Shown in pieces: positions 5,574-30,334 of a stretch of DNA of 36,271 nucleotides. Each line of letters opens with the position of its first letter. Position 1 is the first letter of the stretch. A program made the translations under genes and the position numbers. Source of the stretch: a virus (taxonomy: Duplodnaviria > Heunggongvirae > Uroviricota > Caudoviricetes); the IMG/VR virus record IMGVR_UViG_2695420676_000012; one strand, 5' to 3'. A model generated the notes under the pieces. That model did not search any database. It saw only the letters and a list, made by a program, of their open reading frames with translations, and was not told the DNA's origin.

Positions 5574-6257
5574 TTAAACGTATTTCATGCGCGATTTAAT
5601 GTGCTTATTGATGTTTTCAAGCATCATTGCTTCGTTGCTTTCCCACGATCCTAGCGTCGAATAACGAGTAGAAATTTTATCCGATTTAACGGCAACAATT
5701 CGCTTGCTCTGTTTCTGTATGCGTTTCTCTAAGCGACGTTTTGCCACCGCCGATCCATTCCTAGCGCGTTTGGTTCGGGATTTCTTAGGCTTGTACTTCT
5801 TCATGATAAAAGTCCCTTCCTTGTTCTCTACCTTGATGAAGTTGCCGTTTTCGAGGTTACGCATCATCTTACCGCCTTTGATGGCCTTAATGTTCCCGTG
5901 GGCGTCTAAGACCTTACCGTTGGCGATTGGAACTAGCTTATTGATTTTGCCCCCATCGAAATAGTGTTTCAGATAGTCGTCCTGACTGCCGATCTTCTTA
6001 TCCTTATCCCTTGCGCCCTTGATGAAGATTTGGTGTCTCGTCCCTGATCGGTTCTTGTAGTTGGTATTACCTACAGCTTGCTGAGTCCAGCGAGTAGGTC
6101 TATCAACATTCTTGTTAATCTTCTTCTGGAGTGCTCTGGAAGCAAAGATCGCCCCTTCCCCTATCGCCCTTTCGAATGTATCGGTTGCCTTTTCAGACCA
6201 TTGCCTCAACGCTTTCTTAGTCCTTAGAGCGTTTCGTTTATTGGTACTGGTTGCCAT
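5574..6257 (-). CDS. highly basic (K/R-rich) hypothetical protein, 227 aa
   Basis: ORF with SD 'AGGGGG'; start ATG overlaps the stop of the upstream small ORF (TAAcATG). Confidence 0.5.
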   Translation of the reverse strand: MATSTNKRNALRTKKALRQWSEKATDTFERAIGEGAIFASRALQKKINKNVDRPTRWTQQAVGNTNYKNRSGTRHQIFIKGARDKDKKIGSQDDYLKHYFDGGKINKLVPIANGKVLDAHGNIKAIKGGKMMRNLENGNFIKVENKEGTFIMKKYKPKKSRTKRARNGSAVAKRRLEKRIQKQSKRIVAVKSDKISTRYSTLGSWESNEAMMLENINKHIKSRMKYV

Positions 6258-6258
6258 G

Positions 6259-6429
6259 TTAGCCCCCTAATAACGAAAAGACCCCCGCCAGTGTCCTTAG
6301 CAATTGTTCATCCACGGTCATAGCCGGGAGTTCAAGCCCAAAGGACGTTAGCAGAGGTCTAATAGCTACGTTATAAGTGAGGGCGACAATCAAGAGATAA
6401 CCAAAATATTTCTTAAGTTTATTCTTCAT
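6259..6429 (-). CDS. small membrane protein (56 aa), not in the ORF track; holin-like size
   Basis: Manual translation 'MKNKLKKYFGYLLIVALTYNVAIRPLLTSFGLELPAMTVDEQLLRTLAGVFSLLGG'; SD 'AAAGGGGTG' upstream. Confidence 0.35.
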   Translation of the reverse strand: MKNKLKKYFGYLLIVALTYNVAIRPLLTSFGLELPAMTVDEQLLRTLAGVFSLLGG

Positions 6430-6447
6430 ATATTCACCCCTTTATTA

Positions 6448-6726
6448 TTATTTTTGTTTGAGTATGTCGAGAACTTGGTCAAATTTGGCGTCCATCGCAA
6501 CCACTTTCTTCTCTATACCGTGTAGTGTTTGTTCCATTTGGTAAACACGTTCAGCAATCTGAGTATGGTTATTCTGCATCGTCTCAAACTTCTGGTTTAA
6601 CAATGCGTCGCTGGATTCCAATTTCGACAATCTATTTTCTGTAGCTAATTGATTTCGGTGAAGTCTCCAAAGCCCACCACAAATTAAGGCGATAACACCG
6701 ATACCGCCATATATAATTTCAGTCAT
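6448..6726 (-). CDS. membrane-anchored coiled-coil protein (92 aa; i-spanin-like topology)
   Basis: N-terminal TM 'IIYGGIGVIALICGGLW' followed by coiled-coil-like region; SD 'GGGGG' before ATG. Confidence 0.5.
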   Translation of the reverse strand: MTEIIYGGIGVIALICGGLWRLHRNQLATENRLSKLESSDALLNQKFETMQNNHTQIAERVYQMEQTLHGIEKKVVAMDAKFDQVLDILKQK

Positions 6727-6771
6727 TACGCCCCCGATATTTTTATATAATTTAATGGCAGAATTATTTAG

Positions 6772-6814
6772 ATAAAAATAATCCCGCCTAACTCAAAAGA
6801 ATTAAGCGGGATTA
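6772..6814 (-). terminator. Rho-independent terminator after the J-like gene
   Basis: ~10-bp stem 'atcccgcCtaa / ttaagcgggat' followed on the minus strand by a T-run. Confidence 0.5.
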
Positions 6815-6831
6815 ATTATTAGAATTAAATT

Positions 6832-9800
6832 TTAAGAAACAGAAATACCAGTAGCGGCTTTCTTAGTTACCATTACCGTTAGATCGCTGATATATGCACT
6901 TGGGTTATAGTTGTTAACGCCCTTACAGTAAACTTCAAAAGTCATTGTTACTGCCCCGTGTCCGGCTGGCATGTCAATAACTCCACTGTACATACAGCCA
7001 GAAGTTGCAGTGCGATCATATAGAACACCACCATTTTTCTTAACGATTAGTCGGCAAGTATCCCAATGATCGCTACTTTCGCCACGACGAACAGACCCGT
7101 TATGATGAATCGCTGGAATCACTATTTGGCGATCGAATGGATGATCATCTTCGACCCTTACAGTGATTGCACCATCAGGCCAGTTTGGTTGGCGATGCGG
7201 GAAACTCCTACCAACCACTTTCACGAAGTCACCACGCACCTGATTAGCATCAAGCATACCCAAAATGCGGCAACTTGAATTAATCGTTACGTTGTTCATT
7301 TCGCCGGAATCAGCCACCAAATGACCACGAATATTAGCGTGTCTAAAATGACAAGTGCCATCTTTGCCGATATACCATCCATCGTTACCATTCCAGTTAT
7401 AAGACTGGATATAGTTACCAATTTTAGCATTATCGATAGAGCCATCAATGATATGACCTGTTCCGATCTGTGCGTGTTGGATGTGAGCGCCGTTAATCTG
7501 GGCTGTGCCGATCTTAGCCGTGGTGATACTAGCATCACTAATCTGGGCTGTGCCAATTGCAGCATTACGAATCATCGCATTATCAAGATAAACTTTGTTA
7601 TCTTCGATGCCAAACGGACAAACTTCTGATCCGTCTTGTGGAGCTACCGCGATTTTATCAGCCGTAAAGATGATTCTTGTCGGTTCTGCCGGATCATTGG
7701 TTGCGCTCATATGAATACCAGCCACGCGACCATCTGCATTAACTGCCAGATTATATTTGCTGTTAATGGTTCCCTTCAAAGCATCGATTTTTACATCTGC
7801 TTCCTGATTCACACCAGCAATCTTGCCATCCATTTCTACCCGAACTTGATCAATCTTACTTGCGCTTGCTGCCTCACTGGTAGCAATTGCTTGTTTCAGG
7901 GTAGTAGCAGATGCGCTAACTTCTTTGGTGATATCGCCTTTCAGTTCAGCTTTAACCTGATCAATCTTAGTTGCGCTGGCTTGCTCACTGGTAGCAATCA
8001 GACTCTTGAGAGTATCGGCTGAGGCTTGGACCGTCTGCCCTGTCTCGGTAGTAATCTGTTTATGCATTGCATCAATCTTAGCATCGGCATTAGCGCCAGC
8101 TTGAGCAATAGCATCCGCGATGGTTTCATCTAAGCGATCTTGTAAACCAATCAGGTCTTCCAGTGCTTCTTTGTCCTGATCGTCCCAGCTAATGGTAGAT
8201 TTCATTTGCATGAAATACGGTTCAGACCAAACAGCATCATCCATACCGAAAATATCATAGTGAGCACCACGGATATAATAATCACCGTCAGCCAAATCAA
8301 AGGAAGTATGACTAACGCTATTGGTAGTCACTGCCCTTGCATCGGAGAAAGTATTATCGGTTGCATACTGGATGATTGACCCTGCATAGTCATGTTCTAC
8401 GTCATCCGCCCAGCTAACAAACGCAGTATTAAAGCCACCACGCGCACTAAAACCTTTCATCGGCTTATGTTGTGGGTTGATAGCCACTAAACGCGCTGGG
8501 GCGCTCTCTGAGTTGTTATAGCCCTTGACTGATACTTCTACCGTCAATTCACGGGAAAGGCCGTTAAACTGGTTCATATCAAGCGTATAAGTCCATGATT
8601 CAGGATCGCGGGTACGGTACTGAATAGACTTACCAGCCTTGTTAGTTACCTTGATAATGTATGCTTCAAACAGGTCACTAAACTTGTTAGCTTCACCGTT
8701 GATCATCACATCTAATTGTTGCTGATTTTCCCATTCGATAATCAGATCATTGCCTTCGAAAGTACCAGGCGTGCTACCCTGATTTTTGATTCGAATAACC
8801 GGAGTCGGCAATTCATAGGTAACAGTAGGATTCTGGTTAACCAGTTCCACCCATTCGGAACGAGCAATAATACCGAAAGCACAAACGCGGTAATCGTAGG
8901 AGCGATCTTTTGCCAGTGCATTGATATTGAAAATTTGCTGTGAAGTCTGCCCCAGCTTAATCCAGTTAGGCGATCCACTTACACGGTAATCAATCTGGAA
9001 ACCGTAGCGGTTAAAATCTTCCGGTGCATCCCATGTCAAAGTAACGTTTTTACCGTGGATTGTCTCACCAGTTGCCTTAATTCTGAAATTAGTCGGTTTC
9101 TGTACTGTCATTGAATCCGGTAAACCAGTAGGTCTATTGTCTGGAGTTGCCGCATAGTTCAGGTCAGTATAAACCTGAGAATTATATTCTGTGGCGGTGA
9201 TAGTCATCATCCCAGCAATACCAGAATCAATAGAACGATCAATTGCAGTAATGCGCCAAAGTGAATTATTCAGTTTCAATTCATCATAGGTTACGCTGAT
9301 AACGTCCCATACTTCGGCGGTGAATGCGTCAGTAGTCATAAAGCTGATAACCTGAGTGATACGAGATTTATTTCGTTCTACACTCGCAAGTTTATCAATC
9401 TGGGCTTTAGACTTAACAAAACGATATTCAATATCTTTAGCGATAATTCGACCATCTTGACGAATAGTAGCATCGTTTTCAGCATCAGCCGGATAACGTA
9501 GCATTTGCTCTGAATAGTCGATTGATGGTTCTTGATACATCGCGTTAATGGTATTGAAATAACCGTTAGTGCCACCTGTTTTCAGTGATACCTTACCCAT
9601 CATGATATTGTCTTCATTGAAGGTATGCTTAACAATATCAGGAGCATCCAGTTTCAGCGTAATACGTCCAAAGGATTCGAACATCACCCCGCCGAAAGTC
9701 TGCATAAGGCTAGTTAAGTTCTCTTTAAAGCTGGCGTTCGGATCACATGCACCGTTGGAATGTAAATCCATCTGGCGTACTTGTTTACGCACTTTCAGGA

Positions 9801-15510: not shown

Positions 15511-15981
15511 TTAGAGTTTCTGGAAAACAGCTTGTTTAACCGGAGCACCATCTACTACAAAGGTGAAGGTACGGCCTACTACAGTATCCTCACCACCAGT
15601 CATGGTAGTTTTAGACAGGAAGCCGTTATAAGCGATATGTACACCAGATTTTTTCGTAGCGTCGATGTAGTAAGCAATTTTAAGCTGTACGCGCTTACCG
15701 TCTTCGGTTGCTTTAATCAGTTTTTCGTGTACTTCGTTACCCGGCATGTAGTTGATCGAAAGTTCGATATCCGGTACAGACATACGACCAACCAGCTTAC
15801 GGTTATACGGACCACCGAAGTTAGGAACATCGACAGTAGAACGTTCTACACCAGTTTCCGGGAAAGCCGCACATTCTGGAATTTCCAGATAGCTTTCACT
15901 GTCAAGATCGGTGTTAGTTACTTCTTCATGCAGAAACAGACCAACGAGGCCACCAGAAAAAATATCAAATTTAGTAGTCAT
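15511..15981 (-). CDS. major tail (tube) protein, lambda gpV N-domain-like, 156 aa
   Basis: Position just upstream of the chaperone pair; strongly biased high-expression codons; 'ELSINYMPGNEVHEKLIKATEDGKRVQLKIAYY' resembles the gpV 'MPGEQG...YKIRF' region (recollection); own terminator. Confidence 0.6.
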   Translation of the reverse strand: MTTKFDIFSGGLVGLFLHEEVTNTDLDSESYLEIPECAAFPETGVERSTVDVPNFGGPYNRKLVGRMSVPDIELSINYMPGNEVHEKLIKATEDGKRVQLKIAYYIDATKKSGVHIAYNGFLSKTTMTGGEDTVVGRTFTFVVDGAPVKQAVFQKL

Positions 15982-16645: not shown

Positions 16646-16942
16646 TTAAAACTCCATGAATTTAAAATATTCAACACCACCTTCACCCCCTAAACCAAAG
16701 GAGACGGTGCAGCCAGCAGGAACAAACGAATTTATAGTAGATCCCCAATTGGTCCCACCACGACGACGAGCAACGGTCAAACCATCTACGTTAATATGTG
16801 CATCAGACCACCCACCACCAGCATTATGACGCATTACAGCGACACCAGCACGAGCAGTACCATAGCCGTTAGGAATATCAAATACATGCCATTTTAAAGC
16901 ATCGATTTTAGTATTAATTTCACTACTTACCCAATATCCCAT
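16646..16942 (-). CDS. small glycine-rich protein, paralog 1 of 3 (98 aa)
   Basis: Motifs 'FDIPNGY', 'GGGW', 'TVSFGLGGEGGVEYFKF'; SD 'AAGGA' before ATG. Confidence 0.55.
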   Translation of the reverse strand: MGYWVSSEINTKIDALKWHVFDIPNGYGTARAGVAVMRHNAGGGWSDAHINVDGLTVARRRGGTNWGSTINSFVPAGCTVSFGLGGEGGVEYFKFMEF

Positions 16943-16980
16943 ATAAGAATCCTTAGCGGAGATTTCTCCCCGCTTTCCAA

Positions 16981-19900
16981 TTACCCTAATTTAGCTTCAA
17001 TTGCAGCAAGACGTTCACGAAGAAGTTTATTTTCTTCGCTCATTTCTTGGACCGCTTTAATTAAAAGCGCGTTCACTGCGGAGTTTGAAATTGTTAAAAT
17101 TTCTTCTGGGTTATCAAGACCACCAATTTTTGCGGTTTTAACAGCTTCCGGTAATACCTCTTGTAAATCCTGTGCGATAATACCAATCTCATGACCTATA
17201 ACTTCTCGGTCATTAAGAGATTTAACTTTATCGTAGGTTTTAACTTTGAGTTTATTTACCTTATCCACCGCATTTTCTTCGTAATCTTCAACATTAATTT
17301 TCAGACGACCATCGGAACGAATATAAACATCGTTAAAGTTACCATTACCAGGAGAATAGAAAGTACCATCATGATGAAATTCAAACACCGCTTGAGGATG
17401 ACCAGCCGCTGGCGATGCCTCCGCAGATCCAACGCGAATAATTGCTTGCCCCCAATTTTGAGGAACACGACGCATACCAAAATCGACGGCAGTTGTATAC
17501 CCTTGATTGGTGATTAAACTTCTTCCTTTAATAATTGGATAATAGCTATCTGGTCCTACATAACCATGATCGACAAATATCGGCGCTTCTAATCCCCATT
17601 GATCGCCCCAACCTCCAGATTGGCTAGCAGTCCAACGTTCACCATGAACATAGAATCGAACGTTATTGACATGAGTCATTTCGACACCTTTTGGACTTAG
17701 CGCGATATCACCCGCGTTTGTAATATTGATAGCAGCATTAGTAGCATAGCTATAGAACGCTAATCCATTATCAGCACCACCTTTACCGATATACCAGTTG
17801 TTATTATCAGCACAAGTACCCAGCAAATATATAGACGAATCACCCGTTTCGGCATTCATGACGATTGCGTCAGAACCACGATTAACTTTAAGTTTCCCGA
17901 AGAAGGTGTTTTTAATGGTATTATCACCCAATCGTTCAAATTCTGCGAAAAATCCTTTTGAGTCACGAAGACTTAAAACGTTATTTCGACCTGTATTGCT
18001 TGCCCCCCAATGGACGAGTTCCATATAGTCCATAGATTGACGAGAACCAGCTTTAAAGAAAAGGTTGTCTTCAAGACGGGTACTACCATCAATTCCGAGA
18101 TGCAAACAACGAGCGGTTGCAGTACCACCTAAATACAATCCACCGTCCGCAAAATCATAGCTGAATGGTCTGCGATTATTCCAACTACCAAAAGAATCTT
18201 TTAAATCGGTAGTAAGAATATGGAAGCTAGAACCATCATTGCGTAAAATCAAACCATAGTTACCACCTTTGACAGCCAAACGAGCATTTTCAGATAATGC
18301 AACTTCGCTATTCATTACAATTTTCTGGCCTTTACCGCCAGTAATATGCAATTCACCATCTTCAATCAGGTTTATAGAGTTTTGACCGTTATCGTTCCAC
18401 CAAATAAAATCTTTGGTTGTTCCATCACCAAAACCAAACCAACCATTACGAACATCTTGTCCAGTGCGATAATCCATGAAATTAAAATGACTTGATTCGT
18501 TTGGTCCTCGACGAATATCAATACCAGAATTTCCAGTAACACCGCCATCCAATGTTAATTTCTTGACATGTAACCCGGATGTTGCTGTCAGCAATAATTC
18601 CTGATTTGTATCTTCGTATCCAGTAGCAAGACGATATGCGTTATCATCAACTGTCTCATGCCAGATAGTGGCAGGAGCAGAACTACGGAAGCGACGCAAC
18701 ATTTTCTTAGCATTTGTTTGCTGTTCGTTCAAATGCTCAATGTCGTATTGGCCTTGATGGTTTCCAGCAAAATTTAACGTTCCACGGTTGCTAAAGTTAT
18801 TGAACGATGAAATGTTAAGAGCATCAAAAATTTCATCTGCAACAGGTTTTTCACCACCCAGATATTCAGGAGTATCCAACAGGTTTAAAGAAACACCACC
18901 GGAAGAAACTTGATATTCTGCTAAAACAAATCCTGTATGTGCACCGTAGTAAGCGTAAAGATCGTAATTGTCGCCATCGGTTGGAATAGCGCAAAAATGT
19001 TGTTCATGATGCCAAATAGTATAATACGCATTGAATACAACACCTTTCGGGCTATTGTTGCCGCATCGAATCACCAATTCGATAATATTGGCTTGTCCAT
19101 TATGTCCTACGTTATAACCGTTACCACCAACCAAACGGATCTTAGCCGTGCGACCGTGTTGTTGTGGCATTGTCAAAGTGCCTAGTTTAAACCAACCACC
19201 CTCGATACCAAAATTAAGCGTCTTCTGGAACAGTCGGTCAATTTCTGCTTTCGAATATGCGCCAATTTCAGCCGGAGTAGGTTTATCACCTTCATGATAC
19301 ATGCGGTGAGAATATGCCAAATGTCCCAATTCATCATAGCCGTATGTTCTTACCGTATGAACCGGATTAGACCCATAAGTGAACTCAAAACCACGAGCAT
19401 GATTAACGCCGGATGGGTGCGGAACATGCAAGATCATTGCAATATGACCCGCCAGGTCATTCATGCGAAATGCACCAAAGTAATCAAGATTAAGAGCACT
19501 CGGATCATCAAAAGGGTTTGCGGTCTTAGACAGCAAATAGCCATCAGTGCAAGTGTTTACGTGCTTTTTGATGTACTTGCCATCACTTGATCCATCGGCT
19601 GCATCAATACGGCTTTCTAAACGTGCAAGTTCGGAATCAGTGTAAGACTTGTTATTGTCAACTTTGCTATGAATTGCTGAATTTTTGGCTTCAACATCAC
19701 GGGTTAATGCTGCGACGTTATCCGCTGCCTCTTGCTTATTGGCTGCAATCACACCAGTAAGGTTATTGTAGGTGTCAGTTAACTGATTTTCCGCATAGGC
19801 GTGATTTGCTGCGATAGTGCGGTCAGTTTCTGCCTTAATCAAATCAACTTTGTCATTGATTGCTTTGTGATTGCTTACGATGGTTGCATCGGTACGGGAT

Positions 19901-20391
19901 TTAATATCATCAACTTTTTTATTGATGCGGGTGTCCAGTTCCTGAGTTGCTACAGCAGCCGCATTTTTATTAGCGTTGATGGTATCCGACAATTCAGCTT
20001 TAACACCAGCAAGATCGGAAGCAGCTTTATTTTTATTGGCCTCGATTGTCGCGTCGGTTTCGCGTTTAATTACATCAACTTTATTGTTAATTTCTGCGTG
20101 ATTTGCTGCGATGGTTGCATCAGTAGTTTGTTTAATTTCATCTACTTTAGCGTGAATATTGCGGCCATTTACTGCAATTGTGCTATCCAATTCTTGTTTG
20201 TTAGCATCAACTTTAGATTCTAGTGCCGCGTGAGTTTCAGGAGAAACAGAGATTTGAACTACTTCATGATCTCGGTCTTTGGTAAAAATAACATGGTCTT
20301 TAAGGTTGATTGCTACCTCACCGACCTGTAATTGTTCCGGCGTTGGCTTTTTGCCAGAAACATTAGTTCGTTTAAATTGGATTGATTGCAT
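16981..20391 (-). CDS. tail fibre with C-terminal intramolecular chaperone (peptidase S74-type) domain, 1136 aa
   Basis: C-terminal 'SDGRLK...GIIAQDLQEVLPEAV...LLRERLAAIEAKLG' matches the autoproteolytic chaperone module of T5 L-shaped fibre / endosialidase-type fibres; N-terminal ~22-aa 'KVD.IK..TDATI.ANH' repeats; SD 'GAGGTGA'. Confidence 0.8.
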   Translation of the reverse strand: MQSIQFKRTNVSGKKPTPEQLQVGEVAINLKDHVIFTKDRDHEVVQISVSPETHAALESKVDANKQELDSTIAVNGRNIHAKVDEIKQTTDATIAANHAEINNKVDVIKRETDATIEANKNKAASDLAGVKAELSDTINANKNAAAVATQELDTRINKKVDDIKSRTDATIVSNHKAINDKVDLIKAETDRTIAANHAYAENQLTDTYNNLTGVIAANKQEAADNVAALTRDVEAKNSAIHSKVDNNKSYTDSELARLESRIDAADGSSDGKYIKKHVNTCTDGYLLSKTANPFDDPSALNLDYFGAFRMNDLAGHIAMILHVPHPSGVNHARGFEFTYGSNPVHTVRTYGYDELGHLAYSHRMYHEGDKPTPAEIGAYSKAEIDRLFQKTLNFGIEGGWFKLGTLTMPQQHGRTAKIRLVGGNGYNVGHNGQANIIELVIRCGNNSPKGVVFNAYYTIWHHEQHFCAIPTDGDNYDLYAYYGAHTGFVLAEYQVSSGGVSLNLLDTPEYLGGEKPVADEIFDALNISSFNNFSNRGTLNFAGNHQGQYDIEHLNEQQTNAKKMLRRFRSSAPATIWHETVDDNAYRLATGYEDTNQELLLTATSGLHVKKLTLDGGVTGNSGIDIRRGPNESSHFNFMDYRTGQDVRNGWFGFGDGTTKDFIWWNDNGQNSINLIEDGELHITGGKGQKIVMNSEVALSENARLAVKGGNYGLILRNDGSSFHILTTDLKDSFGSWNNRRPFSYDFADGGLYLGGTATARCLHLGIDGSTRLEDNLFFKAGSRQSMDYMELVHWGASNTGRNNVLSLRDSKGFFAEFERLGDNTIKNTFFGKLKVNRGSDAIVMNAETGDSSIYLLGTCADNNNWYIGKGGADNGLAFYSYATNAAINITNAGDIALSPKGVEMTHVNNVRFYVHGERWTASQSGGWGDQWGLEAPIFVDHGYVGPDSYYPIIKGRSLITNQGYTTAVDFGMRRVPQNWGQAIIRVGSAEASPAAGHPQAVFEFHHDGTFYSPGNGNFNDVYIRSDGRLKINVEDYEENAVDKVNKLKVKTYDKVKSLNDREVIGHEIGIIAQDLQEVLPEAVKTAKIGGLDNPEEILTISNSAVNALLIKAVQEMSEENKLLRERLAAIEAKLG

Positions 20392-20464: not shown

Positions 20465-21298
20465 TCAGTATTCCCCGAAGTCGATCCGGTCATGGATAGA
20501 AACGGCTTCAATCTCGGCTGGTGTCGGTTTTTCTTCCGTGGAATACACTTTCACCCATCCAGAATTACCGTCTTTCTGGACTGTGCGAACTCGTAAACGT
20601 GGTGCGCCGGAAGCGGTGCAAGTTAATTGCCATCCTCCATCTTCATTAGGTTGAACGTGAATTAGTGAAGTATCAGCACTAAATGGGTTAGATGCGCTCG
20701 ATCCCTGATAGGTTACGAAACGGTTTCCGGCTAATGCTTCGCTATCAATCGGACCCGTGAATGGATTTACACCAGCACCCAAACCAAAATCACCTTGACG
20801 TAAGATCCGGCCTTCGGTGGCAATACCACGGTCGAGAATCCCACCATCAGGATCTAATTTAAATTCGATGGTAGTAACTTTGTTATCGCTACCACGGGTT
20901 TTGTGTGATGTGACGTATGCATCAAAAATGACGTAGTATCCTGTGTTAGCAGCACTATAGCCAGAGTTCACAACATAGAACATACGGAAGCGTAAAGGGG
21001 TTTTATCCTCTACCGCTTTCATCAACATTGCTTGATGTTCATCATCCAGAACACGGTTTACTGTGAGTGTTGTTGATTCAAGTTTACGATAGCCAGCCAA
21101 CTTACCAGTAACATCATGGTCATATTCTTCTAACGTCTGGATCTCTGTGGATTCGGTTATCGTCGGAAATGCTGCGATGTTCTCGATAGGACTAAATGCA
21201 GGATCGAAAAAGTCCGGCTGGTTATCCACCATAGTAGACACGGAGACTTCAACATGCGACCCCGTGAAAATGTCTAAGTTATCTTGTGTAATATTCAT
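20465..21298 (-). CDS. tail tube-like / neck structural protein, 277 aa
   Basis: Weak gpV-like pattern ('TLTVNRV...LRFRMFY...YVIFDAYVTS...TTIEFKL'); C-terminal 'KPTPAEIEAVS..DRIDF' also found in the tail fibre; SD 'AAGGGGT'. Confidence 0.4.
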   Translation of the reverse strand: MNITQDNLDIFTGSHVEVSVSTMVDNQPDFFDPAFSPIENIAAFPTITESTEIQTLEEYDHDVTGKLAGYRKLESTTLTVNRVLDDEHQAMLMKAVEDKTPLRFRMFYVVNSGYSAANTGYYVIFDAYVTSHKTRGSDNKVTTIEFKLDPDGGILDRGIATEGRILRQGDFGLGAGVNPFTGPIDSEALAGNRFVTYQGSSASNPFSADTSLIHVQPNEDGGWQLTCTASGAPRLRVRTVQKDGNSGWVKVYSTEEKPTPAEIEAVSIHDRIDFGEY

Positions 21299-21307
21299 TA
21301 TTACCCC

Positions 21308-21730
21308 TTAAAAACGCGCTAGATAAGAAAATTTAAGGCTAAGTGTCCCAACGATACCCCCATCACTAGAATCATCGTCATAATCGGTATTAGAGGCTAC
21401 TGGAGTGATATCTGAAATAGAGAATCCCATATCTTTAAAACGTGGGTTATCCGGCTGAATCTGGATTATCTGGCAAATACCCTCATGGATTTTGGTTTCA
21501 TGAATTTGGGAATATAATTGCATTTCGATAACACACTCAGCTTGCATTGCATTACCGCCACGGACCCTAGTGTAAGTCTCATTCATGCCAGTAATCCAAC
21601 AAACCACGTCATTACTAAAACCTTGCTGAGTTTGTTCTACGTTTAAAGCCAGACCTAAATCTTGTTCGATAATATCTTGCAAGGCGCGTTTGATTTTCAG
21701 TCTCGGCATATTATTAACGGTAGCGAGCAT
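21308..21730 (-). CDS. hypothetical head-tail joining region protein, 140 aa
   Basis: Position between capsid and tail genes; SD 'AGGGGGT'; overlaps the upstream gene by 17 nt. Confidence 0.45.
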   Translation of the reverse strand: MLATVNNMPRLKIKRALQDIIEQDLGLALNVEQTQQGFSNDVVCWITGMNETYTRVRGGNAMQAECVIEMQLYSQIHETKIHEGICQIIQIQPDNPRFKDMGFSISDITPVASNTDYDDDSSDGGIVGTLSLKFSYLARF

Positions 21731-22004
21731 GTGTACCCCCTGCTAAAGTGATAAAGCAATCACAAGTATTATCACCATTGCGCTTAATATATTGAACTTT
21801 GAAACGCTGATTTTCTACAATGACAATATCACCCTGCTTTAAGTCTCCCTCACGACAGAATAGAAATTCTGTTTCTGTCATTACCCCTTGTTCGTCGGTA
21901 GTAGTAATTTCATGATAAGCACGAATTGATTTACCACCTTCCACCGAAAATACAGGAGCACTTCGGAACATTCTTGATAATTGTGATTCTGATAATTTGA
22001 ACAT
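21714..22004 (-). CDS. hypothetical head completion / connector-region protein, 96 aa
   Basis: Position after the capsid gene; SD 'AAAGGGGGGT'. Confidence 0.45.
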   Translation of the reverse strand: MFKLSESQLSRMFRSAPVFSVEGGKSIRAYHEITTTDEQGVMTETEFLFCREGDLKQGDIVIVENQRFKVQYIKRNGDNTCDCFITLAGGTHARYR

Positions 22005-22036
22005 AGTTACCCCCCTTTATGGAGTATTTACATACA

Positions 22037-22062
22037 AAAAAGCCCCACCATTAAGGCAGGGC
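22037..22062 (-). terminator. Rho-independent terminator after the capsid gene extension
   Basis: Minus transcript 'agcccugcc-uuaau-gguggggcu' followed by 'uuuuuu'. Confidence 0.45.
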
Positions 22063-22068
22063 TAATTA

Positions 22069-22200
22069 TTATTTTGCTTTAGTCTTACGTTCTTTTTTAA
22101 CTGTGGCTTTCGCCGTAACCTCTTGAACTTCTTCTTCCTGAGATGGAATCAGATTTTCTTCCCCCAAATCGGGGGAAGGTTCAGAAGGTTCTACAGGAGT
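22069..22200 (-). other. in-frame 43-codon open extension after the capsid gene UGA stop (possible readthrough product)
   Basis: Manual translation after TGA: 'TPVEPSEPSPDLGEENLIPSQEEEVQEVTAKATVKKERKTKAK' then TAA TAA; no ATG/GTG start or SD inside. Confidence 0.3.
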
Positions 22201-24201
22201 TCATTCAGCGGAGATGTGAAGAACTTTCAGGGCTTCCGGCTGTGCTACAACGTAGTCCAAATCTACAAAGATACGAGGCACTACCGCACCACGATCCCTA
22301 TATGTAGTTAGATCCATGTCGAGTTCCAGACCTCCCCACTCACCGATAGTAATACCGGAGAAGTCACCCAGAACGATGTGGTCTGCCGGGATAACGCCAG
22401 AAGTAACTACTTCGTAACCAGCCAGTTTGCCGTTTTCGATGATATAACCGGAAACGCCGTTATCTTTCAGGGTAGATTCCAGTTCAGCAGCAGTTGCACC
22501 GCTCATTGCAAACTTGATCGCCTGAGCAGGAACGCCAGCGTCGGTCAGTGCTGCAATTTCTTTCAGGAAGTCTTTATAAGAGAAAGCAGCTTTCTTGGTA
22601 ACGCGGCTAGCGTCTACCAGTTGCTTAACCAGACCAGCCGGACCACGAGCATTTTCTTTATCAGACAGAATCAGTTGTTCCAGTTTGATACGAACAGCTT
22701 TGTTAATGTGATCAGTGATCAGGGTAGCGATGCCCGGAACGGTTTTCAGCGACTGACGGCTGATCGGGTTGCCACCAGCAAAAGTTTTCGGAGACAGTTT
22801 CACGTTCGCAAATTCAGCTTTGCTTTCCGGTGCAGCACCGTTTTCATCAACGAAGCCGAAAGCGTCAACGCTGGAAGCGGTCATTTTTGGAATAGCGGTC
22901 GGGGAGTTCAAGCCACTGTAAACAGTCACACCCAGACGACCCAGAACAGATTCCGGCATCAGCATTTCGATGTAGGATTCAGTCATCAGTTTTTCGTCAG
23001 TTACAGCGGTCAGAGTAGTTTTGGTGTTACCATCAGCAGCAGCACGCAGAGCAGCAGCCGGAACGAATACAGAGCCACCACGAGCAGCACGACCACGCTG
23101 CATCGCAGCACCAGCAGCCATAGAGGAATATTCAGCTTCGTTAGCACCCAGAGCAGCACCATCTACCAGAGAGCGAATTACGTTGTTCAGGTCAAAAGTT
23201 TTTTCCATTTTAGAGTCCTTAATTTGTTCGTTATTACGTTGAGCATTGACGAGATTATTTAGTGCCTTAGTGCGGAATGCTTCCGGCGTCATGTCTTTAA
23301 TTGCCAATGCGCGTTTCAATTCTTCGTCATCAATATTTAGTTCGCGTGCAATTTCGCGAATTTCTAATTCGTCTTCTTCGGAACGTTCAGCCACTTCTTC
23401 GATTTTTTCTTCTTCAACCGGAGCAGCTTCACGTTCTTCTTTTATTTCTTCTTCCCGAACAGTTGAACTATCATCATCAACACTTTCAGGATGTTCAGCG
23501 TCTTTTCCGTCTTCGAGATTTTCATCTTCTTTATTCTCTTCAACTTGGCGCTCTTGAGTTTCTTCAACTTCCGATTCTTTAATTTCTTCTACCGGAGTTT
23601 CTTCAACCTGAGCGGATTCTTGTTCTTCTTTGATTTCTTCAATTTGTTCTTTAGTCATATCGCGTTTAGCCTCCAAATTAACTGTGATAGTATTTAGAGA
23701 GCGATTTAAACCGACCGTATCGTCAGCAGGAACGGTGACAAATGAGAGTTCATAGGGCGCCCACTTAGTAACAATCAATTGCCCTTTGGCGTAATCGATG
23801 TGATATTCTTTAATGTCATAGCCGACAGAAATTTTTTCCATCGTACCTTCAATGACTTTATTGCGAATATCATTAGCCAAAGTGCCATGCTTAGAGAATT
23901 TAACCAGAGCACGACCTACGTTATCCGCATCGATTCGAGCGTCGCAGACTACACCTAAATGATTATCGAAATTATGATTGAACAGCAACGGAGCGTTATT
24001 ATTCAGACGAGACAGATCAACCGCTTCCGGTGTATGTACCAGAATTTCATCTAGTACCACCATCTCTTGATTTTGCTCATCCCAGAATTGGCGCTGATAC
24101 GGCTGTTCACTGGAGAAAGCAATTTCAAATTCGTATTGATCGTTATGCCCTTCGTTAATAACTCCACCGTAACCGTTAAGATCGCGGCGAAATTTAAGCA
24201 T
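22201..24201 (-). CDS. prohead protease (HK97/S78-like) - acidic scaffold-like linker - major capsid protein fusion, 666 aa
   Basis: N-terminal ~160 aa ends with protease-like 'ELSFVTVPAD'; E/D-rich linker (~residues 180-290); C-terminal ~350 aa Ala/Gly-rich capsid-like domain; between portal and connector genes. Confidence 0.7.
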   Translation of the reverse strand: MLKFRRDLNGYGGVINEGHNDQYEFEIAFSSEQPYQRQFWDEQNQEMVVLDEILVHTPEAVDLSRLNNNAPLLFNHNFDNHLGVVCDARIDADNVGRALVKFSKHGTLANDIRNKVIEGTMEKISVGYDIKEYHIDYAKGQLIVTKWAPYELSFVTVPADDTVGLNRSLNTITVNLEAKRDMTKEQIEEIKEEQESAQVEETPVEEIKESEVEETQERQVEENKEDENLEDGKDAEHPESVDDDSSTVREEEIKEEREAAPVEEEKIEEVAERSEEDELEIREIARELNIDDEELKRALAIKDMTPEAFRTKALNNLVNAQRNNEQIKDSKMEKTFDLNNVIRSLVDGAALGANEAEYSSMAAGAAMQRGRAARGGSVFVPAAALRAAADGNTKTTLTAVTDEKLMTESYIEMLMPESVLGRLGVTVYSGLNSPTAIPKMTASSVDAFGFVDENGAAPESKAEFANVKLSPKTFAGGNPISRQSLKTVPGIATLITDHINKAVRIKLEQLILSDKENARGPAGLVKQLVDASRVTKKAAFSYKDFLKEIAALTDAGVPAQAIKFAMSGATAAELESTLKDNGVSGYIIENGKLAGYEVVTSGVIPADHIVLGDFSGITIGEWGGLELDMDLTTYRDRGAVVPRIFVDLDYVVAQPEALKVLHISAE

Positions 24202-28936: not shown

Positions 28937-28965
28937 AGGTGAACATTCACTTTAATTTGGAGAAA

Positions 28966-29196
28966 ATGACTATGACTACTAAAGCTACTCGCGGTCGCCC
29001 TGCCCGTTTTAATCGTGAACAACTGGCAGCGATTGTAAAAGCGTACTATCAAGCACCGAAAGGTAAAGAGAACAAAGAACGGGTATTAAATGAGCATGGC
29101 TTATCTATAGCCCAGCTATACAAATCCCTACATAAAGTTGATTTGAAATTCTTTGTTCAGGTTGACGGTGAAATGGTAGAAGCAACAGGAATTTGA
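28966..29196 (+). CDS. small HTH DNA-binding protein (RP.KF.RE...HTH module), ~76 aa
   Basis: 'GRPARFNREQLAAIVKAYY...HGLSIAQLYKSLHK...VQV'; start at ATG with SD 'GGAGAAA' (track ORF opens with GTG at 28939); paralog of 32781-32960. Confidence 0.5.
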   Translation: MTMTTKATRGRPARFNREQLAAIVKAYYQAPKGKENKERVLNEHGLSIAQLYKSLHKVDLKFFVQVDGEMVEATGI

Positions 29197-29500: not shown

Positions 29501-30334
29501 TCAGATCCCAAAATCAACAAGGGAAATTACGTTACCTGATTCACGAATCTGTTTAGCAGCTTTGTTTTGAATCAGAATAGTGTTATTTGGCTGCGGCAGT
29601 TTAAGAGTTGCTTTCTGTTCTTCTTCCAAAACGCCCAATTCAACCAGCACCGGAAGAACATCAACAGTAAACTCAAGCTGGTAATGAGCATTCATGCGGC
29701 AGAAAGACAGAGAAGAGTCATTAGCAACATACCCACACGGCTTGTTATTTTCATCATAGACGCGCTCAATGTAGCCAGCAGTACGTAAGGCCGTCAGTGC
29801 TTGTTTAACCTTCGTAGCGCCCTTTTTAGCGCCTAACAGACGTGTCATAGAATGGCTATCTACGGATTTGCGAATGTGTAGCTCAATCAGTTTTTTATTT
29901 TTGCGTTTTTCATCTAATGCCAGTTCGATCCAGTCGGTTTCTTCAAAGTCCGCATACGGGTTAACAGGAGTATTATTGGCGGTTTTCAGTTTCTCTTCCA
30001 GATAATTCCAACGGTCAACCAGTTGGCGAGTAAATTCCGGTACGTTTTGAGCAATCAAGACAATCGAATCTAAGCGACCTTGCTCACCCTCAAACACATA
30101 ATCTTTAACAGTAACAGCAAACCCTAAGTTATTGATTTTTTCGAAATTCTGCGTTGCAGGTTTTCGGATAACTTGGCGTTCAACCAGTCGGTTCATAGAA
30201 GTTTCAAGGTTTGAAAAACGAACTCCAATAAGGTCGGCAATTTCACGAAGAGTCATTTTTGCAACTTCGTTATCAACAACCAGAGACACGGAAGCAGTTT
30301 TAACAGCAGTATTCATAGTAGTAACAGTATTCAT
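29501..30334 (-). CDS. Rha-like phage regulatory protein (antirepressor-like), 277 aa
   Basis: N-terminal 'MTLREIADLIGVRFSNLETSMNRLVERQVI' resembles the Rha N-terminal DNA-binding motif; SD 'AAGGGG'. Confidence 0.45.
   Translation of the reverse strand: MNTVTTMNTAVKTASVSLVVDNEVAKMTLREIADLIGVRFSNLETSMNRLVERQVIRKPATQNFEKINNLGFAVTVKDYVFEGEQGRLDSIVLIAQNVPEFTRQLVDRWNYLEEKLKTANNTPVNPYADFEETDWIELALDEKRKNKKLIELHIRKSVDSHSMTRLLGAKKGATKVKQALTALRTAGYIERVYDENNKPCGYVANDSSLSFCRMNAHYQLEFTVDVLPVLVELGVLEEEQKATLKLPQPNNTILIQNKAAKQIRESGNVISLVDFGI

Follow-up and report, generated by a model that had tools for sequence, protein, structure and literature searches.

Does translation of a capsid gene end at its UGA codon when the same frame stays open behind it, or do some ribosomes continue into that frame and add a tail to the capsid subunit? 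The question is raised by a locus in IMG/VR virus record IMGVR_UViG_2695420676_000012 (Caudoviricetes), hereafter the window, which is the whole stretch of 36,271 nucleotides that was analyzed and which has a G+C content of 41.5%. On the basis of its gene content, NCBI names, and matches to the chromosomes of 54 of 5,426 complete E. coli genomes, the window is a temperate siphovirus-like E. coli prophage; these matches, all chromosomal, were obtained with a 431-nt query made up of the capsid gene end, the extension, and the terminator, over which the match in E. coli CE0007a (NZ_CP119011.1), for example, is 95% identical. Proteins identical to the capsid protein carry the name "phage major capsid protein" at NCBI and come from Escherichia coli, Shigella, E. 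albertii, and Salmonella, and the element seems to be confined to prophages of these hosts. A megablast of the capsid region against 50,697 phage records gave no match, and a capsid profile search of the GTDB species representatives gave no relative.

The genes around the capsid region lie on the minus strand, as do the features described below unless stated otherwise. The capsid gene (22201-24201 including the stop; sense codons 22204..24201) encodes a 666-aa protein in which a prohead protease (Peptidase_S78), an acidic scaffold-like linker, and an HK97-fold major capsid protein are fused, with the protease at the N terminus and the HK97-type capsid domain at the C terminus (Pfam matches, PF04586 and PF05065). 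The solved chain nearest to it is 8gta_A. Upstream are genes for a terminase, a head-tail joining protein, and a lambda-family portal, and downstream are those for a head-tail attachment-like protein, tail proteins, a tape-measure protein, and fibres. The gene next to the capsid gene (21714..22004) encodes the 96-aa head-tail attachment-like protein and starts 28 nt past the U tract of an intrinsic terminator; this 28-nt spacer is nearly invariant among relatives.

The capsid open reading frame (ORF) ends in ...VLHISAE-TGA, and the residues that follow the stop are TPVE. Behind the UGA (22201..22203, read directly from the sequence), which is the proposed read-through site, the frame remains open for 43 codons (22072..22200; translation, TPVEPSEPSPDLGEENLIPSQEEEVQEVTAKATVKKERKTKAK) and is closed by the tandem stops UAA UAA (22066..22071), 2 nt ahead of the stem of the terminator (22033..22063; a 9-bp G+C-rich stem at 22041-22063, then a U tract). 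An earlier sequence-only reading had described the open frame, its TAA TAA end, and the terminator hairpin, and all three were confirmed; its range of 22069-22200 takes in the first TAA, the sense codons being 22072-22200. The predicted tail, which includes the peptide segment TPVEPSEPSPDLGEENLIPSQEEEVQEVTAK, is acidic and proline rich in its first part and basic in its last, and it would make the subunit about 4.9 kDa heavier if the UGA is read as Trp.

That reading had also found no internal ATG, GTG, or Shine-Dalgarno sequence in the extension, which proved correct: the sole start-like codon in frame is a TTG at codon 12 (32-aa ORF), which has no Shine-Dalgarno sequence, lies inside a hairpin, and is missing from the short tail forms of relatives. 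ARAGORN found no tRNA gene in the window, and with neither an Rfam family nor a usable internal start, there is no independent translation route into the stretch. An independent small gene was rejected on the lack of an in-frame ATG or GTG, on the lone TTG without a Shine-Dalgarno sequence and without conservation, and on 0 matches among 5.8 billion proteins. The ATGA overlap at the stop yields an ORF of only 4 codons and is absent where the last capsid codon is GAC, GAG, or GAT, and the antisense ORFs at 22123-22311 and 22143-22307 are lost in short forms; both were set aside.

Stop usage across the 37 phage genes is 33 TAA versus 4 TGA, and the other three TGA-ending genes have T after the stop. 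The base at +4 after the capsid UGA is A, not the classically leakiest C. Because a frame of 43 codons stays open in 6 to 10% of shuffles of this single sequence (5.8% of mononucleotide and 10.2% of dinucleotide shuffles), the window sequence by itself proves little, and the open frame is not significant. Scored against a codon table derived from 23 window genes, the stretch had log-odds of 0.40 bit/codon in frame 0, about -0.6 in frame +1, and about -1.2 in frame +2; real coding windows of the phage have medians of 0.35, -0.68, and -1.11 in the same three frames. Shuffles that were still open scored -0.20 ± 0.15, with 0 of 3,000 reaching the observed value, and the 99th percentile of antisense open windows (n = 565) was 0.255. 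Synonymous-codon preference, which is independent of amino acid composition, was 0.206, compared with a coding median of 0.18, a value reached by 0 of 3,000 shuffles, by 1.6% of the antisense open windows, and by no off-frame window. The earlier impression that the stretch looks coding is thus borne out quantitatively by codon log-odds and synonymous-codon preference in frame 0.

Relatives were collected from IMG/VR, metagenomes, Logan/NCBI assemblies (via the downstream gene), and complete E. coli genomes, giving 106 loci with 56 distinct 626-nt sequences and 32 distinct post-stop haplotypes. The capsid stop is TGA in all 106 loci and all 32 haplotypes, and in the 56 distinct sequences its context is always GAN-UGA-A(C/A)U, in which GAN encodes Glu or Asp and the codon after the stop is ACT or AAT. 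Frame 0 is open in 32 of 32 haplotypes, while frames +1 and +2 hold one to seven stops. The tails are 81, 84, 99, 126, 129, 132, or 135 nt long, all of them multiples of 3 (27 to 45 codons), and their indels, which represent at least five to six separate events (the 48 nt that separate long from short forms, one deletion of 27 nt, and several changes of 3 nt), all preserve the frame. Indels in the adjoining 67- to 71-nt noncoding spacer, located in the terminator loop and in runs of A and of G, are mostly of 1 to 2 nt, and the excess of multiples of 3 in the tail over this flanking spacer is significant (Fisher's exact test, P = 0.005). In all relatives the stretch ends in TAATAA, TGATAA, or TAATAATAA (three UAA) right before the terminator, which is itself kept, with loop indels of 1 to 2 nt. 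Poor conservation of the region, or stops interrupting it in related genomes, had been named as grounds for abandoning the proposal; the opposite was seen, with TGA universal, the frame open, and the indels in multiples of 3.

The same TGA, followed by the same stretch in the same frame, is also present behind a second capsid allele whose protein is only 37% identical to that of the window, and nucleotide similarity between loci with the two alleles resumes at the last codon before the stop. The mosaic junction thus falls exactly at the stop, and the stretch could be part of the module downstream and not of the capsid gene.

A search with the tail alone against 5.8 billion proteins gave no hit; the stop has therefore never been a sense codon in any of them, nor has the stretch ever been called a gene. 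RefSeq annotation of the stretch in the complete E. coli genomes was checked and nothing was found, tblastn of the tail against 50,697 phage records gave no match, a 19-mer from the tail gave 3 chance matches only among GTDB species representatives, and a tail 27-mer search of IMG/VR gave no contigs beyond the set already found. These results also bear on whether the stretch is a fossil, that is, an ancestral fused C-terminal tail that a nonsense mutation cut off by creating the TGA and that now decays neutrally. Gene-like codon usage would last for some time after such an event, relatives with fused tails do exist (see below), and the ratio of nonsynonymous to synonymous divergence (pN/pS) is near 1. 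Decay of this kind is nevertheless very improbable, because the frame is unbroken across 32 haplotypes; no frameshift or stop has arisen despite a synonymous divergence (pS) of about 0.20 and several indels. Further evidence against it is that the TGA is common to two capsid alleles that are 37% identical, that the RNA structure described below is under selection, and that the 5.8 billion proteins include no relative in which a sense codon takes the place of the stop.

The amino acid sequence of the tail is weakly constrained. Its pN/pS is 0.74, compared with 0.28 for the capsid domain, at a similar pS (0.20 in the tail and 0.27 in the capsid), and the minimum numbers of changes at the three codon positions are 18, 21, and 21. 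As there is no third-position excess, a codon-position or dN/dS test was dropped as proof of coding; this lack of bias is attributed to RNA structure, which constrains the nucleotides. The tail's basic end coincides in part with the A-rich tract that precedes the terminator, from which it could have arisen as a by-product. Weak sequence constraint fits a disordered appendage, and it also fits a situation in which only the passage of the ribosome matters.

The RNA behind the stop folds into a stable structure. An extended, branched stem-loop, HP1 (22117..22190), spans +14 to +87 from the U of the UGA with a predicted energy of -32.3 kcal/mol and contains the 8-bp hairpin P1a (22158-22178; CUUCCCCC-GAUUU-GGGGGAAG) and, from the fold, the hairpin P1b (22130-22153). 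A small hairpin, HP2 (GGC-GAAA-GCC; 22105..22114), is found in every tail form, with a compensatory variant (GGA-GAAA-UCC) in relative L215, and some forms have a third hairpin. With the terminator excluded, the fold z-scores against dinucleotide shuffles for the four length forms were -4.2, -5.3, -3.7, and -2.8, the value of -4.2 being that of the window's own form. The 10-nt spacer between the UGA and the base of HP1 (ACUCCUGUAG; 22191..22200) varies in sequence and is constant in length, placing the base at +14 in 32 of 32 haplotypes. In the long forms this base consists of AACC/GGUU plus UCUG/CAGA or UGAAC/GUUCA, and HP1 carries P1a and a second hairpin, which the 27-nt deletion takes out exactly; in the short form HP1 is a single 11-bp hairpin with a GAAA loop. 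Since the stem base is homologous in long and short forms, its fixed position at +14 reflects conservation, not convergence or independent recurrence.

Variation across the 22 long-form sequences affects 3 of 52 paired columns, compared with 22 of 48 unpaired columns (P = 4e-6), and the same holds for third codon positions, of which 1 of 18 paired and 8 of 15 unpaired are variable (P = 0.004). Covariation was not found in the long forms, because the stems never vary there. The short forms (six sequences) have one compensatory double change in each of the three helices, with 98% of cells paired, and three compensatory pairs were reached in 1 of 500 shuffles. The nucleotide sequence is thus constrained mainly by RNA structure, and the reading frame is kept as well. 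The stretch also has what is seen in read-through signals, a conserved stable structure that begins about 8 to 12 nt after the stop; viral read-through stimulators start at +12 to +16 (PMC13517186). RNase III processing was considered and rejected, the short-form stem having just 11 bp.

Such a structure might also be expected of an untranslated 3′ UTR, in which the hairpins and terminator would stabilize or process the capsid mRNA, block Rho loading, or give rise to a 3′ UTR-derived small RNA, with the frame as a leftover or a chance occurrence. This explanation accords with RNA structure, whose function could have nothing to do with translation, as the strongest constraint on the sequence, with the lack of third-position bias and a pN/pS near 1, with the movement of the stretch together with the downstream module across capsid alleles, and with the absence of RefSeq annotation. 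Structure and terminator are indeed present, yet a constraint on the reading frame is present too, and an untranslated region would leave several observations unexplained: five to six indels that are all multiples of 3 next to noncoding DNA with 1-nt indels, the absence of a frame-0 stop from all 32 haplotypes despite a pS of 0.20, similar to that of the capsid, and gene-like codon and synonymous usage in frame 0 only. Rfam searches at E ≤ 10 gave subthreshold noise only and no family, which is a further point against it. We consider this alternative unlikely.

A hairpin close behind a UGA inside an ORF is also the arrangement of the bacterial SECIS (PMC7026636), and dedicated decoding of the UGA, through selenocysteine, a suppressor tRNA, or a genetic code in which TGA is sense, was weighed for this reason. 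This locus differs from a SECIS in that no model matched, the loops vary between forms, and there is no selenoprotein context. E. coli has selenocysteine machinery, but at E ≤ 10 neither SECIS nor any other Rfam family was matched, and the apical loops differ by form (GAUUU or GAAA) and seem to be without the features bound by SelB. A suppressor tRNA is not encoded in the window. An alternative code would have to accommodate three other genes that end in TGA, long ORFs that are intact under code 11, and E. coli as the host. We give dedicated decoding almost no credence.

A sister clade, with capsids 42 to 44% identical to that of the window, was found in IMG/VR, metagenomes, 7 E. coli genomes, and the record of phage DCP80. 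Its capsid stop is TAA, and it does not have the stretch found in the window. Where members have a spacer ahead of the terminator, the -1 frame opens a few codons upstream of the TAA and codes for related basic tails, for example, KDGSLTDTGAQAAPVRKPRALKVTK, KDGSLIDTGVQKTPIKKARAQKSVK, KNGSLINTGEQASPAKVKKPRALKVK, and SLRKAKAKAKAKAETAE; its stop lies 3 to 7 nt ahead of the terminator stem (28 nt in DCP80), and coding log-odds are positive solely in this frame. Just upstream, in frame 0, are the sites GA[A AAA AAG], GA[A AAA AAA], GT[A AAA A], or GA[A AAG], and stem-loops follow these slippery sites; the relative in E. coli PSS-15 (NZ_AP027709.1), for example, has GAA_AAG. The heptamer A_AAA_AAG is that of dnaX. 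It looks as if the sister clade obtains an equivalent tail via a predicted -1 frameshift. Capsids of yet another group carry a short Ala/Glu/Lys tail by direct fusion in frame 0, e.g., ...EKGTPAEAKAAKQ*. Taking together the -1-frame tails, the fused tails, and the in-frame UGA, one capsid family therefore appears to gain a tail in three ways; because the tails are short and of low complexity, homology among those of the different clades is not demonstrable. A slippery heptamer combined with an open -1 frame was looked for in the window clade and not found, the -1 and +1 frames there carrying one to seven stops. Slippage of the prfB type into +1 was rejected, as GAA-UGA is unable to re-pair.

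For an untranslated 3′ UTR, the sister clade counts on both sides: some of the TAA relatives likewise have hairpins between the capsid stop and the terminator, but the -1-frame ORF behind slippery heptamers would be left without an explanation. The sequence-only reading had included neither the stem-loop at +14 nor the frameshift in the sister clade, both of which strengthen the case for read-through.

The position of the final stops suggests another role, in which read-through would tune the terminator: ribosomes that pass the UGA would melt the hairpins, stop 2 nt from the terminator stem, and block the terminator, letting RNA polymerase read on into the head-completion and tail genes in an attenuation-like coupling that would set the ratio of capsid to tail expression. 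In the window clade, and in every -1 relative except one, 2 to 7 nt separate the end of the recoded ORF from the stem, so a terminating ribosome could block the stem, and the fused-tail relatives, in which every ribosome stops at the end of the tail, end 12 to 19 nt from it. That the amino acid sequence of the tail is barely constrained while its frame and length phase are constrained would also agree with such a role. However, read-through of a few per cent would shift termination little, unless a nearly perfect terminator is combined with tight coupling between the polymerase and the leading ribosome. The terminator is retained in both the minimum-energy and the centroid fold of the region as a whole, with no predicted antiterminator pairing, and the -1 ORF of DCP80 ends 28 nt away. 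The idea is a speculation for which the ends of structural genes offer no direct precedent, and we regard it as distinctly improbable. Leader-peptide attenuators, which it resembles in that a ribosome stopped beside a terminator stem (here at 2 nt) could block that stem, differ from this locus, where the 3′ end of a structural gene, not a 5′ leader, is involved, no antiterminator pairing is found, and Rfam leader matches are far below threshold. An attenuator of the leader-peptide type was rejected, since no mutually exclusive terminator and antiterminator pairing is predicted.

The reading that we favor, and think probable, is that programmed read-through of the UGA yields a minor, C-terminally extended capsid subunit. 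This had been the central suggestion of the sequence-only reading, and the comparative evidence from stop identity, frame, and codon usage supports it: a leaky UGA at the end of the coat ORF is kept in relatives, and an open ORF with coding signatures follows it in the same frame. Most ribosomes would stop at the UGA and release the normal protease-scaffold-capsid fusion, and a minority would decode it, near-cognate tRNA-Trp presumably inserting Trp. This decoding is probably aided by the weak UGA-A context and by the stable stem-loop; the base of the stem-loop, 10 nt past the stop, would lie at the mouth of the mRNA channel when the UGA is in the A site. Read-through ribosomes would then add 43 codons and end at UAAUAA, and the resulting capsid subunit, of which the shell would contain a few copies, would bear a flexible tail of about 5 kDa that is acidic and proline rich at first and basic at its end. 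Both the occurrence of read-through and its stimulation by the stem-loop are predictions that we infer from the sequence comparisons.

Programmed read-through is textbook knowledge for RNA viruses and for phage Qbeta. Searching the literature, we found no report of stop codon read-through at a capsid gene of tailed phages or prophages and no bacterial read-through signal with a 3′ structure, and as far as we could establish, frameshifting is the only recoding known for capsid genes in bacteria and their DNA phages. We know of no precedent for a hairpin that stimulates read-through on bacterial ribosomes. The locus would then hold the first read-through signal made of a UGA and a 3′ stem-loop to act on bacterial ribosomes in a tailed dsDNA phage, producing a minor tailed subunit and being interchangeable, within one E. 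coli prophage capsid family, with a dnaX-type -1 frameshift (sister clade) and a fused tail (third clade); for this fuller claim we would put the chances a little short of even. If true, it offers a tractable E. coli prophage model in which a downstream RNA structure competes with RF2, and a single capsid family in which read-through, -1 frameshifting, and direct fusion are swapped for the same kind of tail. It would also expose a class of virion proteins overlooked by annotation pipelines, no database protein having the tail, and provide a natural permissive display site at the capsid C terminus.

A close likeness is to Qbeta, a single-stranded RNA phage with an unrelated coat fold, whose A1 extension forms a folded domain of some 200 aa and for which, to our knowledge, no downstream stimulatory structure is known. 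In contrast, the present locus belongs to a temperate tailed dsDNA phage, its tail is a probably disordered 27 to 45 aa, and a conserved stem-loop stands at +14. Shared by the two is a coat gene that ends in a single leaky UGA, which in Qbeta is read by a normal tRNA to give a minor extended coat subunit in the particle (PMC7026636; PMC13517186). Qbeta A1 is made by about 3 to 5% read-through of UGA, the leakiest stop, in E. coli, and according to reviews it is needed for infectious particles (PMC7026636; PMC13517186).

Recoding near the end of an HK97-fold capsid gene that yields an extended minor subunit is known from T7 and T3 (10A/10B), Lactobacillus phage A2, and the Listeria phages PSA, A118, and A500 (PMC5009743). 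All of these use -1 or +1 frameshifting, whereas the extension in the window is in frame 0 and the other frames are closed; it is the sister clade that seems to follow the T7-type route. In T7, gp10A has 344 aa and gp10B has 397 aa, and the exposed C terminus of gp10B is used for display (PMC3444042; PMC5009743). The tail proposed here is probably likewise flexible and exposed on the outside of the capsid.

The architecture of the signal itself resembles those of the alphaviruses VEEV and SINV, of MoMLV, and of coltivirus, in which a leaky stop and a spacer of about 8 to 12 nt are followed by a conserved, stable structure, an extended stem-loop or a pseudoknot, at +12 to +16 (PMC13517186), here at +14. 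Those signals act on eukaryotic ribosomes with eRF1, while for the window, stimulation is a prediction about bacterial ribosomes. A last parallel is with retroviral gag-pol, which differs in that a polymerase is fused and the hosts are eukaryotic, and in that the frameshift of our sister clade is only predicted. Related retroviruses arrive at one extended product by in-frame read-through in MuLV and by -1 frameshifting in HIV and RSV (PMC5009743), and in this capsid family the TGA clade and the TAA clade seem to divide along the same line.

The capsid stop codon (22201 to 22203) is the exact site of a mosaic junction, which was also found at the corresponding loci of relatives (L042 to L044, L176 to L179, and L193 to L194). 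The same downstream DNA, approximately 90% identical, lies behind two capsid alleles that are only 37% identical, and it is shared from the last codon on. Within the predicted read-through tail that follows the stop codon, the basic end (22072 to 22104 and the equivalent positions in relatives) was observed to consist of interchangeable cassettes, namely, KKERKTKAK, KKQRKTKE, KKVGRPPKAK, and KRGRKPKE. The cassettes that contain GRP or RGR resemble AT-hook cores. These same cassettes coincide with a third hairpin, in which a compensatory change from GGUGG/CCACC to GGCGG/CCGCC was found.

In the sister clade of relatives, whose capsid genes end in TAA, a −1 frameshift cassette is predicted from the sequences. 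This putative cassette extends from approximately 12 nt upstream of the capsid TAA to the terminator (L190, L192, and L217, as well as L034, L036, L232, and L196) and consists of GAA_AAA_AAG or a similar A-run, a downstream stem-loop, and a −1 frame that is open for 12 to 31 codons, is coding-like, and encodes a basic tail. GAA_AAA_AAG corresponds to the dnaX heptamer. No annotation of the −1 cassette was found in the E. coli genome records retrieved for the sister clade.

Between the U tract of the terminator and the next start codon is a spacer of approximately 35 nt (GUAUGUAAAUACUCCAUAAAGGGGGUAACUAUG; 22005 to 22040) that is almost invariant in all relatives and exceeds the flanking coding DNA in conservation. 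Such a sequence may contain a regulatory site.

Two other genes in the window also end in TGA, an Ant-like anti-repressor gene (29501 to 30334, minus strand) and an 85-amino-acid open reading frame (28939 to 29196, plus strand), after which 40 and 33 in-frame codons, respectively, remain open. In both genes, the base following the TGA is T.

A gene for a protease-capsid fusion belonging to this prophage family is also present in the record of Escherichia phage DCP80 (PQ671644.1, positions 5789 to 7789; L196), a 141-kb record classified as Straboviridae/Tevenvirinae, and is unexpected in a T4-like genome. The genes on both sides of it are annotated as hypothetical proteins only. It is possible that the record is a chimera or has been assigned to the wrong group.

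Parts of the tail-fibre gene of the window (16981 to 20391, minus strand; 1,136 amino acids) are 79 to 97% identical at the DNA level to the genes that encode the distal subunit of the long tail fibre in T-even phages, including KFS-EC, MIZ4, and G37-3, with matches within approximately 16675 to 19528. This identity implies that a temperate prophage and lytic phages of the T4-like type have recently exchanged sequences. The tail-fibre gene, together with four small open reading frames, lies between two genes with similarity to major tail proteins (PHROG 158; 20465 to 21298 and 15511 to 15981, both minus strand), a gene order that is unusual for a siphovirus tail module.
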